Source of the DNA: Escherichia phage A73
Sequence record: OP778609
Direction: 5' to 3' (one strand)
DNA length: 64,000 bases
Below, one piece after another: positions 19,901-25,054 of the stretch. Numbering within the stretch: the stretch's first letter is position 1; every line of letters starts with the position of its first letter. The position numbers and the translations under genes were made by a program. The notes under the pieces are model-generated. The model was not told where the DNA came from. It ran no database searches and saw only the letters and a list, made by a program, of their open reading frames with translations.

Positions 19901-20026
19901 CTATTCTTATCAAACGGGCGGCACCTGGGAACAGGGGGAGGTAATCACTGGACGACTCCGCTATACAGTGATAGTAAATAGCTATCAATAATCTCCAAAA
20001 ATAAAATAAAACCTATCGAGTCTTTA

Positions 20027-20055
20027 CAATTCTTTCTGTTGACACAACAACCGCA
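20027..20055 (+). promoter_or_regulatory. sigma70 promoter TTGACA-17-TATTAT driving an ORF-free transcript
   Basis: no ORF longer than about 10 codons between 20062 and 20340. Confidence 0.5.
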
Positions 20056-20341
20056 TTACAGTATTATTTATCTCGTAGGGCAGCGAAGCAGTGATGTAAA
20101 GTAGTTACTCTATGATGTAAGTTCTGAGAAGTCGAATCCGATAAAGTATCAGAAAGTTTCTAAGTTTTCGAATCGTCCAGATGAAAAAGGCTGGCAAGTG
20201 TTGAGAAAGGGCACGTTGAGTAAGTCCTGAACAGGGGCGCTCCTAGACACCTTCTACTGAGATTGCGATCGAAGTGTTAAACTGTGAGAAACAAAAGAGC
20301 GCTAGGAAAGAAAGAAACAAGAAAAGAAGTTAAAAAGATTG

Positions 20342-20370
20342 TTGACACAAAAGTAAGTTGTATACTATTA
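20342..20370 (+). promoter_or_regulatory. sigma70 promoter TTGACA-17-TATTAT
   Basis: followed by CTCGTAGGGCA start and ORF 20416. Confidence 0.5.
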
Positions 20371-20415
20371 TATCTCTCGTAGGGCAAACATTCAAAACAT
20401 CAAAAAGGGTACAAA

Positions 20416-20691
20416 ATGTTACAACTTAACGCTAAATTAGACAAAGAAATCACTGAATTTTGGGATATGGTAGTAGCTACTGATGTGGACGGTGTAGCAA
20501 GTCCTTACCTCAATAACATCGAGTATCACAATGTTGCCGCTATCAATGCAGAACACAAAGAGAAAGGCGGTGCTGATAAATTTGCTAAAAGCAATGGCTT
20601 CACTGATGCTAATCACATGATGCAATCAGTATTGTGGCAAGCTCAAGAAGATTTCGAAGAAAAAACTCTTGAATTTGCCAGACGCTCATAA
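20416..20691 (+). CDS. hypothetical protein (91 aa)
   Basis: ATG with AAAGGG RBS. Confidence 0.55.
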   Translation: MLQLNAKLDKEITEFWDMVVATDVDGVASPYLNNIEYHNVAAINAEHKEKGGADKFAKSNGFTDANHMMQSVLWQAQEDFEEKTLEFARRS

Positions 20692-20746
20692 TAGAATAAT
20701 CAAACGGGCCGAAAGGCCCACTAACTGACCTAACAGGATTAACATC

Positions 20747-21016
20747 ATGAATCGCATCGACCAGCTTAAAGTAGTTCAGCATATGGCTTACCGTATCCTT
20801 GAAGTTCAGAAAGGGAGCAAAAAAGAAGTATGTGAGAAGGCTTATAAGGTATTCAGCCACAAAGCTGATGATTGGAAGTTGCAGAAAGTCAAAAAGGCCG
20901 ATATCCTGGGCTACCTTGAGGATGAGATCCGCCTTGCGGAGCAAAAACAGATTCGTCGTGATGAGGCAGAACATAACCAGGCCTGGCAGGAGTGGTTTAA
21001 AGGGTATACTAAGTAA
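20747..21016 (+). CDS. hypothetical protein (89 aa)
   Basis: ATG with AGGAT RBS; charged coiled-coil-like. Confidence 0.5.
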   Translation: MNRIDQLKVVQHMAYRILEVQKGSKKEVCEKAYKVFSHKADDWKLQKVKKADILGYLEDEIRLAEQKQIRRDEAEHNQAWQEWFKGYTK

Positions 21017-21025
21017 TATCGAAAA

Positions 21026-21055
21026 CGGGGGGTTATATGCCCCCTTTGTAAATAT
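21026..21055 (+). terminator. hairpin GGGGGG-loop-CCCCC plus T-rich run
   Basis: inverted repeat then TTTGTAAATATT. Confidence 0.45.
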
Positions 21056-21079
21056 TCCATTAATTTACAATTCCCTCTA

Positions 21080-21109
21080 TTGACAAGAAAGTCAATTTTG
21101 CAGTATAGT
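21080..21109 (+). promoter_or_regulatory. sigma70 promoter TTGACA-18-TATAGT
   Basis: hexamers upstream of ORF 21150. Confidence 0.5.
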
Positions 21110-21149
21110 TATATCTCTAGCAGCAAACAACAAAACAAAGGACAACGAC

Positions 21150-21569
21150 ATGAACATCAAATCAACTAATCCGGCTTACTCTTTCGATAACGCTTTTTGT
21201 CACGGTAGTGCCGCCAAAGGTTTTGAAATTGATGGTAAACTGGTTATCGTCAATGTTGATGGGGAAGAGGTTGCAGTTTATCCAGTGGCAGACGTTAAAA
21301 GCCGTTTACAATGCCGCATGGATGTTAACGAATACCGCCTTGATCCGGTTCGTGTCGTTGCCCTGGTACTGGAAGAAGAAATTAAAGCAATGCAGCACAG
21401 CAACAAATTTATCGGCGATGCACAGGACAACATGAAAGTAAGCCGCCACAAAGTTAATGAAGCACTGAAAGATTTTGGCTTTAAAGATCTAGTTATCAAA
21501 CGTGATGAAAAATTTCGCTTTCGTAATGATCTGGCAAATCGCTACTATGAAATCTATGAAGCACTTTAA
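21150..21569 (+). CDS. hypothetical protein (139 aa)
   Basis: ATG with AAAGGA RBS. Confidence 0.6.
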   Translation: MNIKSTNPAYSFDNAFCHGSAAKGFEIDGKLVIVNVDGEEVAVYPVADVKSRLQCRMDVNEYRLDPVRVVALVLEEEIKAMQHSNKFIGDAQDNMKVSRHKVNEALKDFGFKDLVIKRDEKFRFRNDLANRYYEIYEAL

Positions 21570-21585
21570 GAGGTAAGACAACAAG

Positions 21586-21608
21586 GGGCCGCAATAGCGG
21601 CCTTTTCT
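21586..21608 (+). terminator. rho-independent terminator (GGCCGC-AATA-GCGGCC + TTTTCT)
   Basis: same GCAATAG-loop hairpin class as leader hairpins, here with a U tract; T tract abuts next -35. Confidence 0.55.
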
Positions 21609-21609
21609 A

Positions 21610-21638
21610 TTGACACCTGCTAATCATTCCTTTAATAT
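21610..21638 (+). promoter_or_regulatory. sigma70 promoter TTGACA-17-TAATAT
   Basis: followed by CTTGTAGGGCA start. Confidence 0.55.
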
Positions 21639-21689
21639 GTACCTTGTAGGGCAAGCAATAACGCAAGCCCATAAATAGGACAAACTATC

Positions 21690-21887
21690 ATGACCATCGC
21701 TAATGAACTGATCGCTGTATTGAATGAAGCCAAATCTAATCAGATCGATGTACAGATCAAAGAATTGCCCAATGGCCTGATCGGTTGCACTTGCACCTGC
21801 TTCGGAAGTGACTACACAGAGGTAAGCTCTCTAGAATCTCTCATTCGTCACTTGAAATCAATAGTTGAAGATTGGAGAATCATCTAA
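21690..21887 (+). CDS. hypothetical protein (65 aa)
   Basis: ATG with AGGAC RBS; last gene of + block; followed by hairpin GGGGCCGCAATAGTGGCCC. Confidence 0.5.
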   Translation: MTIANELIAVLNEAKSNQIDVQIKELPNGLIGCTCTCFGSDYTEVSSLESLIRHLKSIVEDWRII

Positions 21888-22503
21888 TCAACCAGGGGCC
21901 GCAATAGTGGCCCTTGTCATATCCATCGGCGTGACTCTCCCAACTCTATTAATCCCTTCCCCATTTGGATCATCATAACTTACCTCATCTAATCATTAAT
22001 CTAATCCCCTTTGGAATCTCTCCCCCACAAATCTAAACTAATCTGATAGCTTACCATAACATAATCCACAAAGAAAGAACTATTTTGCCCACAATGAAAG
22101 GCAGTTTTAAAGAGATACCATTGCCAGAGTATGGAGGTGGCGCGACCGTAGGGAGCGACACTATAAAACGAGTATACCCCTCCTACCGCTATGCGGTCAT
22201 CGGTGATAACCGATATCGTTACACGCTATCTGTTCTCTTCGTTTCCTCGTTTTATAGTGTCTATATGTAGTAATCTTTTATTCTTTGTCAATACATTATC
22301 GAAGATAATATTGAATTATTTAATGCTTTGTTATTCATATAAAGTGAATAGCTAGTCAATAGGAAGGCCGTTAGTGTGACCACACAAAGAGGCTATGCAC
22401 CACAAAGAGAGGCCGTACTTGCCCACAAAAGGAGCAAACAAGCAAGGCGGTACGCCAGTTTGCTAATGAGCGTAGCTCTTTTGCTAGACAAAACTCTCTT
22501 CTC

Positions 22504-22661
22504 TCTTCTTTCCCAAAATAAATTTTTTCTTGCTTTTATTGCCAGAGTATGGCGGGGGGAATGTTGAAAAAATAGATCTTGACTGGTCAACATACGATAC
22601 ATCCTATCTTCTTTCCCAAAATAAATTTTTTCTTGCTTTTATTGCCAGAGTATGGCGGGGG
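22504..22661. repeat. two perfect 55-bp direct repeats spaced 103 bp apart
   Basis: TCTTCTTTCCCAAAATAAATTTTTTCTTGCTTTTATTGCCAGAGTATGGCGGGGG at 22504-22558 and 22607-22661; related partial copy TTGCCAGAGTATGGAGGTGG near 22120. Confidence 0.85.
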
Positions 22662-23022
22662 CGCTCAGGCTATTGATGGCCCTGATGGAGTCGCTCCTGT
22701 ACAGTTGGAATAGTTCACAGTTGGATAGTAACAAGTTGGTATTATTCTTCCCACAAGTTGGAGCAGGCCAGAACTGGCGGGGCTTAGAGTCGCCTCACTT
22801 GTTGGACTGGAAGGAGGGCGCTTGCGGTGCGTATAAGTTGTATTATGTTAAATGCAGATCGAAATCGGTATTCTAAACCAGATTCAGAAGTCAATAGAAA
22901 TCTTTAACTTTATTGTTGGGGCAGCACAACATTTTTCTTGACAAGTCGAATCAAAGATGTATTGTGGATTGAAAATAAATGAAGATAATGCTTGACTTCT
23001 TGGATATTTTGAAAACATCGGA

Positions 23023-23039
23023 CCCCCTCCCCCTCCCCC
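23023..23039. repeat. poly-C tract CCCCCTCCCCCTCCCCC
   Basis: 17-nt C-rich run in an otherwise AT-rich non-coding region. Confidence 0.8.
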
Positions 23040-23346
23040 ACGGTCGCCGTGCCTGGCAGCAGTGCCAACGCACTAGACAAAAAAGATGCTTTCTTGCTGA
23101 CGAAGAACAAGGTCAACAGACAACAGACAAGGCTGGTTAGACTGGTTAGCCTCTTCAGGCCAGTACCCTTTGGATATATTTGGGCAGGTACAGAAAAGGA
23201 CCCACCCCGTCATTAGTGACTCAAAATTTTGGCGGGAGGGTAAAATAACTAAAAAGTGGTCGTTTAAAATTCAGGCTGGAGGTCCACTCAGAGTAGACGT
23301 ATACTGGAAATTATAAACTACAAGACGAGTGGATGTATGGACGTGA

Positions 23347-23504
23347 CTCCGTGGCATGAATGCCACTCTGTGGACAATAGGCATTACTCTGTGGCAAGAG
23401 AGGAGCCTCTGTGGACAATCGGAGTGCCTCGATAGGCAGAATGGACTTGACTCTGTGGGCAAAGTAGTGTGTCTCAGTAGGCCAACAGTGGTTACTCTTT
23501 AGGC
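23347..23504. repeat. array of 8 degenerate CTCYGTGGRCAA repeats at about 21-bp periodicity
   Basis: copies start near 23347, 23366, 23387, 23407, 23428, 23451, 23473, 23496; core TGTGGACAA is 8/9 match to complement of DnaA box (TGTGNATAA). Confidence 0.7.
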
Positions 23505-23515
23505 AAACTACCTAA

Positions 23516-23684
23516 TTTTGGGATGAACTGATATTTGTGGGAATCATTGTACGATATTTGGGCATTATTGTAGGTGGAGTACAACAGTTTGGAAGGACGA
23601 TATAGTTTGGTGGGCACAACATTTTGGGATGAGCAGATGAGTTTGGTTGCAATCCAGATGCAAAAAGCACCCACTTTTGGGGTG
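23516..23684. repeat. array of about 9 degenerate TTTGGGR-type repeats at about 20-bp spacing
   Basis: TTTTGGGA, TTTGTGGGA, TTTGGGCA, TTGTAGGTGG, TTTGGAAGG, TTTGGTGGG, TTTTGGGAT, TTTGGTTGC, TTTTGGGGTG; contiguous with the previous array. Confidence 0.6.
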
Positions 23685-23701
23685 CTCTCTGTAGTTCAGG
23701 A

Positions 23702-24100
23702 TCATACAGCCAGTCGTCTGAGGGCATACGTTGGATTGTCAATGTCAAATAGATTGACAAGCTTAACAATTCTGTAGCTCTGGGCTTTTACTGACTTGTA
23801 TTGAGATTTATCTTTATCTTCTTGAAGGATGATAGATTCAATTCCGTTATCATAGGCGTACTCAAGGTAGCTCTGAGTAAACCCAAGGGCATCTGCATCC
23901 TTCTTGGCTATTTGGTAGATAAATTGTTGCTCTGTGCCGTCATAAATTACCTTCTTGTCTTTCGGTTCTATATAGATTCTACGTGCAGAGCCAGAACCAA
24001 TCTTCTGTTCTTGTTCTTTACGTTTTTCGGCCTCTTCTGCCAAAGATTTCCGTGTACCATTCCAACGATGCGCGATTTTATTTACCATTCCGGCCTCCAA
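23702..24100 (-). CDS. hypothetical protein (132 aa)
   Basis: first gene of minus block; charged; start codon not verified. Confidence 0.5.
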   Translation of the reverse strand: MEAGMVNKIAHRWNGTRKSLAEEAEKRKEQEQKIGSGSARRIYIEPKDKKVIYDGTEQQFIYQIAKKDADALGFTQSYLEYAYDNGIESIILQEDKDKSQYKSVKAQSYRIVKLVNLFDIDNPTYALRRLAV

Positions 24101-24324
24101 GTGATATCAACTTTAATTTCTACCTGTGCCAACACGAAAGGACGTTCATCACCACTGAAGTTATGTCGCCAATCCGTCTCCCGAATGTCCAGACAGTCTT
24201 TACTCTTAACATCGTAGAACGTAAACGTCCCCGACTTCCTGAACACTTCGTCATTAGGGCCGTCCACATGACCGAAGTAGGCCCCTCTTTTAATTTCCTG
24301 AAAGTTATAGTGTGCCATGTTCAT
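24082..24324 (-). CDS. hypothetical protein (80 aa)
   Basis: ORF in contiguous minus-strand operon. Confidence 0.5.
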   Translation of the reverse strand: MNMAHYNFQEIKRGAYFGHVDGPNDEVFRKSGTFTFYDVKSKDCLDIRETDWRHNFSGDERPFVLAQVEIKVDITWRPEW

Positions 24325-24329
24325 CCTTA

Positions 24330-24524
24330 TCAGTAGTATTCATATTCATCACCCTTGTACCATGAATCGTAACCTTCATTGTGGGTGTATAATTTAGTTG
24401 GTGTTTTCTTTGTCTGATCTTTAGAGAACAATGCCGTGCCGTCCTTAAGGAATCCAGCAGCTTCCTCTCCTTTTACGACGACACGACCTTTCTTTTTCCA
24501 CTCTTCAAATGTACGGTATACCAT
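24330..24524 (-). CDS. hypothetical protein (64 aa)
   Basis: internal ATG (MVYRTF..) of track ORF 24330-24578, chosen to abut upstream stop. Confidence 0.4.
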   Translation of the reverse strand: MVYRTFEEWKKKGRVVVKGEEAAGFLKDGTALFSKDQTKKTPTKLYTHNEGYDSWYKGDEYEYY

Positions 24525-24525
24525 A

Positions 24526-24735
24526 TCACTTCTCTCCCTTCTCCGCTTCGTCTGCTGCGGCGATAAGTGCTGCCGCAAGCTTACGTGCTGCCTCTGGTGT
24601 ATAGTACATTAATGTATTTCCTTCTTCATATTCATCGGGATTGAAGTCTACAGAGACGAGGTTACCGACCCCAGACTTCTTGATGCTAACCTCGGTTTCG
24701 TCGAAATCAACGTCTTCAATGCGTACAGTTTTCAT
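24526..24735 (-). CDS. hypothetical acidic protein (69 aa)
   Basis: ORF; Ala-rich C-terminal helix. Confidence 0.5.
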   Translation of the reverse strand: MKTVRIEDVDFDETEVSIKKSGVGNLVSVDFNPDEYEEGNTLMYYTPEAARKLAAALIAAADEAEKGEK

Positions 24736-25054
24736 AGTAATTTCCTCTTTATTGTCGATAGGGTAATTATGATTTAAACCCTGATGTTAAGTGCTCACCA
24801 AGTGCCCCACTGACCCTTCTTTGTGTCAGTGTGATTCATCGTCCTTTCTCCATAATGTCCACCATAATCATGGAGAACGCCAGTATCAGTAATGGTAGCG
24901 CGATCACTACCCCAGCAGTCATCATAGTTGCTCCAGAGCCGACAGCACGGCGACGGATGCGAGTAACACCAAGATAATGCCCCAGGTCAAGTAATGATAC
25001 CAATTAGGCCATAAAAGGTAGTCACAATTCTCCCAACGGGCGTTCGGGTTATCG

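Follow-up and report, generated by a model that had tools for sequence, protein, structure and literature searches.

A probable collapsed terminal repeat of Escherichia phage A73, probably enlarged by a templated 103-bp insertion, in a non-coding interval

The window analysed here is a stretch of 64,000 nucleotides from Escherichia phage A73 (sequence record OP778609), an rV5-like E. coli phage that we assign to the Septuagintavirus/UPEC06 clade of the Vequintavirinae. Among 50,697 phage records, relatives were found in only five, all of them Vequintavirinae (W70, A5-4, A7_1, LTH01 and UPEC06). Three conserved patterns used to find more gave no match in IMG/VR, and two metagenome matches to one pattern were set aside as chance, being without further similarity. 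The locus of interest is the non-coding interval between a plus-strand ORF ending at 21887 and a minus-strand ORF ending at 23702 (Table 1). The genes on both sides converge on this interval and do not diverge from it. The sequence-only reading was right in describing a 1.8-kb non-coding region, but the AT-rich background that it described is only mild (GC 0.41-0.43).

A coding role for the interval was rejected, as its ORFs are frameshifted or broken by stop codons among the relatives. Ten ORFs of 53-85 aa inside the interval gave no Pfam match and one marginal PHROG match (E = 0.005); tblastn with the PHROG-matching ORF returned only the same five relatives, and a stop codon cuts its reading frame in A5-4 and UPEC06. 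Another ORF (22979-23140), in which the poly-C tract is read as DPLPLPH, crosses the boundary of the direct terminal repeat (DTR) proposed below, and conservation in the relatives does not extend to its 3' part. The small "hypothetical protein" ORFs that the relatives' records annotate over the interval are almost certainly spurious. No tRNA genes were found in the window, and terminase genes were absent among those of its large ORFs that were scanned.

Table 1. Features of the non-coding interval and of the donor locus in the A73 window
Feature	Coordinates	Strand	Remarks
Non-coding interval	21888-23701		1,814 bp
Inverted motif CCACA, left flank	22024..22430	+	6 copies versus 0 TGTGG; clusters 22024-22094 and 22380-22430
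"Third partial copy", 24-nt motif ATTGCCAGAGTATGGAGGTGGCGC	22120..22143	+	invariant in 6/6 genomes
Hairpin block	22157..22261	.	perfect 16-bp inverted repeat (22157-22172 / 22246-22261) with smaller inner hairpins
Proposed DTR, single collapsed concatemer-junction copy	22487..23053	.	placed by homology and boundary motifs
Pure pyrimidine (CT) tract, 21 nt	22494..22514	+	7 nt inside the proposed left terminus
55-bp unit, copy 1	22504..22558	+	probable ancestral position; left-terminal segment of the proposed DTR
48-nt filler between units	22559..22606	+	exact reverse complement of 26829-26876
55-bp unit, copy 2	22607..22661	+	duplicated part of the 103-bp insertion
Four AGTTGG repeats	22703..22761	+	starts 22703, 22719, 22734, 22756; inside the proposed DTR; conserved in relatives
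Sigma-70-like promoter candidate TTGACA-16-TATTGT	22938..22965	+	inside the proposed DTR, toward its right boundary
Poly-C / polypyrimidine tract CCCCCTCCCCCTCCCCC	23023..23039	+	ends 14 nt inside the proposed right terminus
Seven (A/C)CTCTGTGG(A/G)CAA repeats, right flank	23365..23514	+	phased at about 21 bp
Filler donor, 54 nt	26823..26876	-	48 nt + 6-nt microhomology; inside the RCC1-like ORF

The two 55-bp units are identical over exactly 55 bp, as had been noted from the sequence alone, and the repeat can be extended to 22501/22604 (58 nt at 98%). Each unit combines a CT tract and an A/T-rich stretch with the motif ATTGCCAGAGTATGG and a G-run, and both copies end in TTGCCAGAGTATGGCGGGGG. 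A perfect repeat of this length is unexpected by chance, and shuffled sequences gave 0 matches for the 48-nt filler between the copies. Since this unrelated filler stands between the copies, the 103-bp period went unreported by Tandem Repeats Finder. The third partial copy that had been placed near 22120 is also real and conserved; the 64 kb contain exactly three copies of the 15-mer ATTGCCAGAGTATGG, each of them at this locus. Likewise present is the poly-C tract, which is identical in W70, A5-4, A7_1 and LTH01 and carries one C>T in UPEC06. The CT tract is conserved in the relatives, and the corresponding place in Gotham and Aya is taken by a pyrimidine tract of 14 nt. A sigma-70 or sigma-54 promoter in TTGCCAGAGTATGG was considered and rejected: the hexamer spacings, judged by eye, do not fit, and a promoter scan gave no flag.

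We consider it probable, with a good deal of confidence, that the interval is a concatemer junction, that 22487-23053 is the collapsed DTR, and that the 55-bp repeat arose from a recent templated insertion of 103 bp. At both ends of the UPEC06 record (MW250786) stands an exact repeat of 462 bp, which aligns to window positions 22487-23053 at 95.5% identity; according to its authors, the UPEC06 termini were determined with PhageTerm (PMC8928767). In the Vequintavirus Gotham (MT682716), a 459-bp repeat_region is annotated at 1-459 and 136567-137025 and, in the window's orientation, starts with GACAAGTTTTTCTCC and ends with CCGTCCGCC; for the bases after its end, TGGCAGCAC, the sources are Aya, where they were read, and the Gotham loci, from which they were derived. 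At the left boundary (marked here by a slash), the window reads TA/GACAAAAC (TA/GACAA...) and Gotham and Aya read CA/GACAAGTT; at the right boundary, GCC/TGGCAGCAG in the window stands against GCC/TGGCAGCAC in Gotham and Aya, and the boundary motif of the window, ...GCC/TGGCAGCA, matches that of the Gotham repeat. The Aya record begins at the left boundary, and the bov22_2 record opened exactly at GCC/TGGCAGC. The left-terminal bases vary within the clade (GACAAAAC versus GGTAAAAC). Mean identity to the relatives is 0.948 in the proposed DTR and drops to 0.75 and 0.68 in the flanks next to it, with a sharp step at both boundaries. The end repeat of UPEC06, the boundary motifs of Gotham and this island of conservation between variable flanks together lead us to read the locus as a collapsed DTR, of which the window holds one copy.

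The position of the proposed DTR, in a non-coding gap between two convergent gene arms, is also found elsewhere: it starts 917 bp downstream of a conserved 139-aa gene (22487 versus 21569), the exact 329-bp DTR of Schickermooser starts 928 bp after the same gene (150866 versus 149937), and in both subfamilies many records stop 0.9-1.6 kb past it. Within the repeat, only a 28-nt patch (22826-22853) aligns with the Vequintavirus DTR, and nothing inside it aligns with the Phapecoctavirus DTR; the cross-genus support therefore comes from boundary motifs and position and not from overall similarity. The boundaries given here, placed by the record of one clade member and by boundary motifs common to a second genus, are to be read as probable. 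A terminal-repeat junction of the phage chromosome had been among the possibilities raised by the sequence-only reading, and for the locus this is borne out by the homology to the UPEC06 end repeats and by the Gotham boundary motifs, but the 55-bp copies are not the terminal repeat itself, as they sit inside the DTR, beginning 17 nt from its left end. Comparison with close relatives, by which that reading was to stand or fall, gave a divided answer: the duplication is absent from them, but a terminus signal is present in them at this locus. For BpE1AUH, a Vequintavirus, PhageTerm called headful packaging, yet a CheckV DTR was also reported (PMC13211470); its headful call counts against the DTR reading.

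If the locus is a collapsed DTR, a terminase would cut concatemers sequence-specifically at 22486/22487 (TA/GACAAAAC) and 23053/23054 (GCC/TGGCAGCA), and the DTR would be duplicated by DNA synthesis after cutting. Virion molecules would then be expected to begin with GACAAAACTC, to end with GTCGCCGTGCC and to carry the 567-bp repeat at both ends; the physical genome ends are probably 22487 and 23053, not the ends of the record.

The proposed DTR measures 567 bp, or 464 bp after subtraction of the insertion, and the DTRs of the clade relatives measure 460-474 bp. A single 55-bp unit is present in W70, A7_1, LTH01 and UPEC06 (0-3 substitutions) and, with a 1-nt deletion, in A5-4. The second unit and the filler form the 103-bp insertion, which is unique to A73 (0/5 relatives), the filler being absent from the equivalent position in all five. 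The notion of a recent duplication is thus upheld. The donor of the filler lies about 4 kb from the repeat in an intact ORF for an RCC1-like protein of 380 aa (26228..27370), and the filler was therefore copied, not moved. W70 and A5-4 have the donor stretch without any difference, and the mismatches in the 95%-identity match fall on post-junction bases; either A73 or a relative could have been the source of the filler. The first 6 nt of copy 2 (TCTTCT) are shared with the donor as a junction microhomology, beyond which 11/14 further bases match; the microhomology is 6 nt at this junction and 0-1 nt at the other, where the G-run varies in length from 3 to 6 among the genomes.

Two switches of template in the course of replication would be the simplest explanation of these junctions. 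After the G-run at 22558, synthesis of the unit would have stalled, 54 nt would have been copied from the opposite strand (26876-26823), and the TCTTCT microhomology would have brought synthesis back to 22504 for another pass through the unit. The uniqueness of the insertion, the inverted copy that forms the filler and the TCTTCT junction together suggest that the perfect identity of the two units reflects a recent template-switch duplication or a captured minor variant. The "recombination hot spot" of the sequence-only reading would fit a templated insertion close to the end of a genome. A73 would then be a natural variant at the DTR that carries an extra copy of the left-terminal segment.

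Two other accounts of the second copy have to be weighed against a templated insertion in the A73 genome. The second copy and the filler may be absent from the dominant genome, either as an assembly or library artefact or as a minority variant threaded as a loop. The two-unit arrangement is indeed unique to A73, for which no independent assembly was found (exact-protein look-ups returned W70 and A5-4 only), and the perfect repeat is exactly 55 bp long, a common k-mer size in de Bruijn assembly; this length, however, is made up of a 49-nt duplication and the 6-nt microhomology. Amplification chimeras, too, are marked by an inverted segment joined at a microhomology, but only a chimera found in many reads would make its way into the consensus. 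The doubled coverage of a DTR could allow an assembler to pull a minority variant into the consensus, but both junctions (GGCGGGGG/GAATG and CATCCTA/TCTTCTTTCCC) are novel and must therefore exist in reads, such that traversal of the assembly graph would not suffice to create them. We regard this account as unlikely, although it deserves some weight. The other account, in which the perfect identity reflects functional constraint and the two copies are conserved tandem protein-binding sites kept identical by selection, draws on the high conservation of the single unit (0.98 identity over 22500-22549) and on the recurrence of its motif at 22120. It is practically refuted by the absence of the two-unit state from all five relatives, and its spacer would be inverted coding sequence from another gene.

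The flanks of the proposed DTR hold conserved elements of their own. The block 22045-22290 has 0.956 identity to the relatives (0.99 over 22100-22199), and the hairpin block within it folds with z = -2.2 and -2.8; one of its inner hairpins exists in three sequence variants, with pairing kept in all. The promoter candidate inside the DTR agrees with the consensus at 10/12 positions, and 27/28 of its bases are invariant in six genomes, UPEC06 having TATTGC. In the right flank, which would be the sub-terminal region beside the virion's left DTR, CTCTGTGG is found 4 times in the array, and the other 62 kb have 0 copies. On the same flank, TGTGG is strand-biased (5:0 in A73, 3-7 versus 0-1 in the relatives, 7:0 in Aya and 4:0 in Gotham). 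The CCACA polarity of the left flank is the same in 6/6 clade genomes, and this array is not present in Vequintavirus.

The near-invariance of the block, its stable fold, the pairing kept through the variants and the promoter-like site in the DTR could all be taken to mean that 22109-22281, with or without a transcript from that promoter, is a structured non-coding RNA. We find this doubtful: Rfam covariance models run over 20000-25000 on both strands gave nothing at E <= 1, the block has no convincing promoter or terminator beside it, and the variants number only three. Furthermore, all of the pairs are Watson-Crick on both strands, and a DNA hairpin or cruciform would explain the data equally. 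Just as improbable, in our view, is that the interval serves mainly as an origin of replication or a regulatory region, with the repeats as iterons bound by an initiator or by host DnaA, and is not the genome terminus. Several classes of short phased repeats and a peak of the cumulative GC skew at 22-24 kb would suit an origin, but the turn of the skew coincides with the switch of gene orientation from the plus to the minus strand and may thus not be independent evidence. TTGTCCACA (twice) and TAATCCACA resemble DnaA boxes, but the search for TTWTNCACA found no perfect box and only 3 sites with at most one mismatch to TTATCCACA, versus 0.9 expected, and the DnaA-box reading of the TGTGG/CCACA motifs was rejected as weak. 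The terminus evidence from the relatives' records is direct; an origin could coexist with a DTR and is excluded only as the sole explanation.

Within the reading as a DTR, several of these elements may have a part in end formation. The 24-nt motif lies 344-367 bp outside the left boundary and has its DTR copy at 22538-22561; this pair, which brackets the left cut site, would be our best candidate for a site that the packaging machinery recognises. The CT and poly-C tracts mirror each other, which suggests that both may belong to the cut-site context. We tentatively propose, as a possibility and not as the expected outcome, that the motif pair, the polypyrimidine tracts, the hairpin block and the strand-polar TGTGG arrays may jointly constitute a cis-acting packaging and end-formation signal in Vequintavirinae. 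If this is true, the hairpin block would act like the hairpin intermediate proposed for repeat duplication in T7, and the 103-bp duplication would mean that a further copy of the motif can be accommodated in the left-terminal segment. In Vequintavirinae, no cis signal for packaging and end formation is known to have been defined. The recognition and duplication of ends with exact DTRs is poorly understood relative to cos and headful systems (PMC13595956), and the locus offers a compact set of conserved candidate packaging elements; its value lies in annotation and hypothesis generation, not in discovery.

For this group, short DTRs have been described before, with 459 bp in Gotham (PMC7471380), 475 bp in Jab (PMC13538427), 342 bp in BME3 (PMC12210895), 329 bp in Schickermooser (PMC6563267) and, with 2x coverage and T7-type packaging according to PhageTerm, 514 bp in KPP-1 (PMC9862379); nothing at the A73 locus departs from what the family would lead one to expect. 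Termini go unmentioned in the paper that describes Septuagintavirus. The proposed A73 DTR resembles the short exact DTRs of Vequintavirinae and Stephanstirmvirinae in its position, in its boundary motifs (those of Gotham) and in its length, which without the insertion (464 bp) falls within the class of roughly 330-515 bp and with it is 567 bp. It is the longest of the clade's DTRs on account of the templated insertion, which brings in the extra left-terminal segment. Only the Septuagintavirus/UPEC06 clade has the poly-C tract; the Vequintavirus DTR lacks it and has just TTCCCATTCCGTCCGCC in its place.

The concatemer junction of T7 and T3 reportedly has a 160-bp terminal repeat with flanking arrays of short repeats, and the terminal repeat is said to be duplicated during maturation. 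A73 resembles this arrangement in having a short exact DTR with phased short-repeat arrays just outside it, and its inverted repeat, located about 230-330 bp upstream of the left boundary, recalls the proposed hairpin intermediate of T7. Unlike T7 and T3, A73 is a myovirus without a T7-like RNA polymerase, and no sequence similarity was seen; the transcription-coupled recognition of T3/T7 therefore cannot apply as such. In the pac region of SPP1, a headful-packaging phage, the terminase small-subunit sites pacL and pacR bracket the cut at pacC. The conserved motif copies of A73 on either side of 22486/22487 may be analogous to these sites, but in Vequintavirus both copies of the equivalent motif lie wholly outside the DTR, which sets that genus apart from SPP1 and weakens the idea of bracketing.

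Microhomology-mediated template switching of the FoSTeS/MMBIR type gives rise to templated insertions. The A73 insertion is similar in combining a duplication with an inverted filler from a nearby locus, in its microhomology and in its intact donor. It differs from such cases in that the event lies in a phage genome, 17-175 nt from the proposed chromosome end, with a mechanism that is inferred only from the junctions; on this interpretation, A73 would provide a clean example of microhomology-mediated template switching beside the end of a phage chromosome.

By homology with the records of its relatives, the interval 22487-23053 is most probably the direct terminal repeat (DTR) of this phage. 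A BLAST search of 50,697 phage records found relatives of the interval only in the Escherichia phages W70, A5-4, A7_1, LTH01 and UPEC06 (MW250786), all members of the Vequintavirinae, in or near the genus Septuagintavirus; this assignment is consistent with the remaining gene content of the window, which also encodes class I and class III ribonucleotide reductases, ThyX and three tandem RCC1-like genes. The UPEC06 record both begins and ends within the interval, its first 462 bp equal its last 462 bp, and this end repeat aligns to the DTR of the window. The Vequintavirus Gotham was announced with 459-bp terminal repeats (PMC7471380), and its record (MT682716) carries a repeat_region annotation at both ends. 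In window orientation, the Gotham repeat starts with GACAAGTTTTTCTCC and ends with CCGTCCGCC, and the bases after a repeat end of this type are TGGCAGCAC (Aya; junction rebuilt from Gotham loci). In the window, TA precedes and GACAAAACTCTC follows the left boundary (22486/22487), and GTCGCCGTGCC precedes and TGGCAGCAG follows the right one (23053/23054). Two more Vequintavirus records open exactly at these boundaries, Aya at the left and bov22_2 between GCC and TGGCAGC. The DTR starts 917 bp past a conserved 139-aa gene in the window and 928 bp past it in the Phapecoctavirus Schickermooser, whose record contains an exact 329-bp DTR (also PMC6563267). Steps in identity to the relatives coincide with both boundaries. 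The DTR measures 460-474 bp in the clade and 567 bp in the window, or 464 bp without an insertion described below; it is present only once in the window, as expected if assembly collapses the two terminal copies into the concatemer-junction copy.

Features of the DTR locus and its surroundings; mean identity compares the window with its five relatives
Feature	Coordinates	Strand	Mean identity
Right-flank repeat core, inverted, left flank	22024-22094 and 22380-22430		
Partial copy, 24 nt, ATTGCCAGAGTATGGAGGTGGCGC	22120-22143		
Perfect 16-bp inverted repeat enclosing smaller hairpins	22157-22172 / 22246-22261		
Left of DTR	22291-22487		0.75
DTR	22487-23053		0.95
Pure pyrimidine tract, 21 nt	22494-22514		
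55-bp unit, copy 1	22504-22558		
Filler, 48 nt	22559-22606		
55-bp unit, copy 2	22607-22661		
AGTTGG, four repeats, inside DTR			
Predicted sigma-70-like promoter TTGACA-16-TATTGT, inside DTR	22938-22965		
Poly-C tract CCCCCTCCCCCTCCCCC	23023-23039		
Right of DTR	23054-23457		0.68
(A/C)CTCTGTGG(A/G)CAA, seven repeats, ~21-bp phasing, right flank	23365-23514	+	
RCC1-like (WD40_RLD) paralogues, three tandem, 380 / 414 / 399 aa	26228-29726	-	

Two gene arms converge on the interval 21888-23701, with a plus-strand ORF ending at 21887 and a minus-strand ORF ending at 23702. The small ORFs of this interval gave no match in Pfam and a single marginal match in PHROG, and they are broken by frameshifts or stop codons among the relatives; Rfam and tRNA searches also gave no match. 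The relatives' GenBank records (labelled L002, 3477-3710; L003, 3660-4078; L001, 4032-5073; L004, 75-1090) carry several small 'hypothetical protein' CDSs over the DTR and the adjoining sequence, and a number of these cross the DTR boundary; given the frameshifts and stop codons among the genomes, we regard the CDSs as spurious gene calls. A cluster of TCTAATC / ATCTAATC repeats within a C-rich stretch (21980-22045) lies directly past the terminator of the last plus-strand gene. The non-coding interval, the perfect 55-bp repeats, the partial copy near 22120 and the poly-C tract were all confirmed as the sequence-only reading had described them.

The 55-bp unit starts 17 nt inside the left terminus; the conserved left-terminal segment consists, in order, of GACAAAAC, a pyrimidine tract, an A/T-rich stretch, ATTGCCAGAGTATGG and a G-run. 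Across the 64 kb, the 15-mer core ATTGCCAGAGTATGG is found three times, always at this locus. The partial copy, 344-367 bp beyond the edge of the DTR, is invariant in 6/6 genomes; together with the copy within, the motif thus brackets the left cut site. At the right terminus, the poly-C tract ends 14 nt from the boundary. Four relatives share it unchanged and UPEC06 has one C>T change, so it is not a homopolymer that varies by slippage; the Vequintavirus DTR lacks it. A polypyrimidine tract therefore lies just inside each cut, on the same strand at both termini. As a working model based on position and conservation, the polypyrimidine tracts and the motif pair may be part of the context that the terminase recognizes and cleaves. 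In T7, repeat duplication has been proposed to proceed through staggered, strand-specific nicking and fill-in synthesis, and the repeat here might be duplicated in the same manner. Two side observations concern similarity to the DTR and its cut sites. Alignment of the DTR with that of Vequintavirus is confined to 22826-22853 (GTGCGTATAAGTTGTATTATGTTAAATG), which matches Aya 263-290 at 86% identity and has a comparable offset from the left end. At 20981-20994, in the 3' end of ORF 20747..21016, GCCTGGCAGGAGTG matches 13 of 14 positions of the right cut-site context (GCC followed by TGGCAGCAGTG); this likeness is probably coincidental, since the sequence is present in UPEC06 and LTH01 and absent from W70, A5-4 and A7_1.

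The two 55-bp copies are identical over exactly 55 bp (58 nt at 98% from 22501 and 22604), and both terminate in TTGCCAGAGTATGGCGGGGG. All five relatives contain one unit, directly followed by CGCTCAGG; the window-specific extra comprises 103 bases, namely the filler and the second unit. The filler is the exact reverse complement of 26829-26876 (shuffles gave 0 matches), which lies inside the intact 380-aa ORF 26228..27370, the first of the three RCC1-like genes. Identity with this donor runs 6 nt (TCTTCT) into the second unit, so that 54 bases are common in total, and imperfect similarity continues beyond (TCTTCTnnCCnAAA). The first insertion junction sits exactly at the G-run after GTATGGC, a run of 3 in A5-4, 4 in W70, A7_1, LTH01 and UPEC06, and 5-6 in the window (22553-22558, 22656-22660).

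Such a sequence pattern is characteristic of two template switches that copied in a filler, and the 103-bp insertion would have taken its filler from the 26829-26876 region. Alternatively, the filler and second unit may represent a minority variant taken in by the assembler; an artefact of computation alone is unlikely, since each of the two junctions has a novel sequence that must be present in the reads. W70 and A5-4 carry an identical donor stretch, and the filler therefore does not reveal its source genome. The perfect identity of the two copies is due to recency, not to selection. Of the explanations offered by the sequence-only reading, recent duplication is borne out by the single unit in the relatives and the window-only insertion, and a terminal-repeat locus by homology with the UPEC06 end repeats and by boundaries like those of Gotham, Aya and bov22_2; functional constraint on two copies is not sustained, since the relatives have one unit and the filler was copied from an RCC1-like ORF.

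Outside the DTR, the non-coding block 22045-22290 (246 bp), which holds the partial copy, surpasses the genes next to it in conservation, with an identity of 0.956 across the genomes and 0.99 over 22100-22199. The perfect 16-bp inverted repeat falls in this block, and one of the hairpins that it encloses occurs in three sequence variants with pairing kept in all by compensating changes. All pairs of the block are Watson-Crick on both strands and hence fit a DNA hairpin as well as they fit an RNA structure; the block matched no Rfam family. Within it, at 22228-22234, lies ATCTGTT, a heptamer that in T7 forms the core of the class II pause signal for its RNA polymerase, located at the concatemer junction; as these phages have no T7-like polymerase, its presence is probably due to chance.

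Both flanks contain short-repeat arrays, and CTCTGTGG occurs four times in the right flank and 0 times in the other 62 kb. In the window, CCACA on the left (6:0) and TGTGG on the right (5:0) show a strand polarity that is the same in 6/6 clade genomes; the right-side polarity, and that side only, is also found in the Vequintavirus genomes Aya (7:0) and Gotham (4:0), although the flanks of these two cannot be aligned with the window. A reading of the TGTGG motifs as DnaA boxes was rejected as weak (3 sites versus 0.9 expected when at most one mismatch is allowed, no perfect box), and the GC-skew turn at 22-24 kb is not independent evidence of an origin, since it coincides with the change in gene orientation. 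Inside the DTR, the promoter-like site is conserved apart from a single-base difference in the UPEC06 second hexamer. In W70, a 160-aa HNH_3 homing-endonuclease ORF (L002 4160-4642, equal to L017 5960-6442) lies ~110 nt right of the DTR; neither the window nor the other relatives have this ORF, its insertion point being a gap after ~23063 of the window, and it marks the sequence adjoining the DTR as an insertion site for mobile elements.

The locus belongs to an already known class, the short exact DTRs found in the Vequintavirinae and Stephanstirmvirinae. Reported DTRs include those of Jab (short, 475 bp; PMC13538427), KPP-1 (514 bp, 2x coverage, T7-type per PhageTerm; PMC9862379) and BME3 (342 bp; PMC12210895), and a recent review considers the way exact-DTR phages form their ends to be less well understood than the cos and headful systems (PMC13595956). 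For genomes of the Septuagintavirus type, the explicit DTR placement may be new, as the paper describing the genus is silent on termini; the set of conserved elements listed here near the cut sites and the lineage-specific 103-bp insertion may also be new. The 55-bp duplication resembles microhomology-mediated templated insertions, and the DTR itself has a sequence homologue in the UPEC06 record. Although the locus differs from the T7 concatemer junction in having no link to a phage RNA polymerase, its layout is alike, with a short exact repeat, flanking short-repeat arrays and an upstream inverted repeat.
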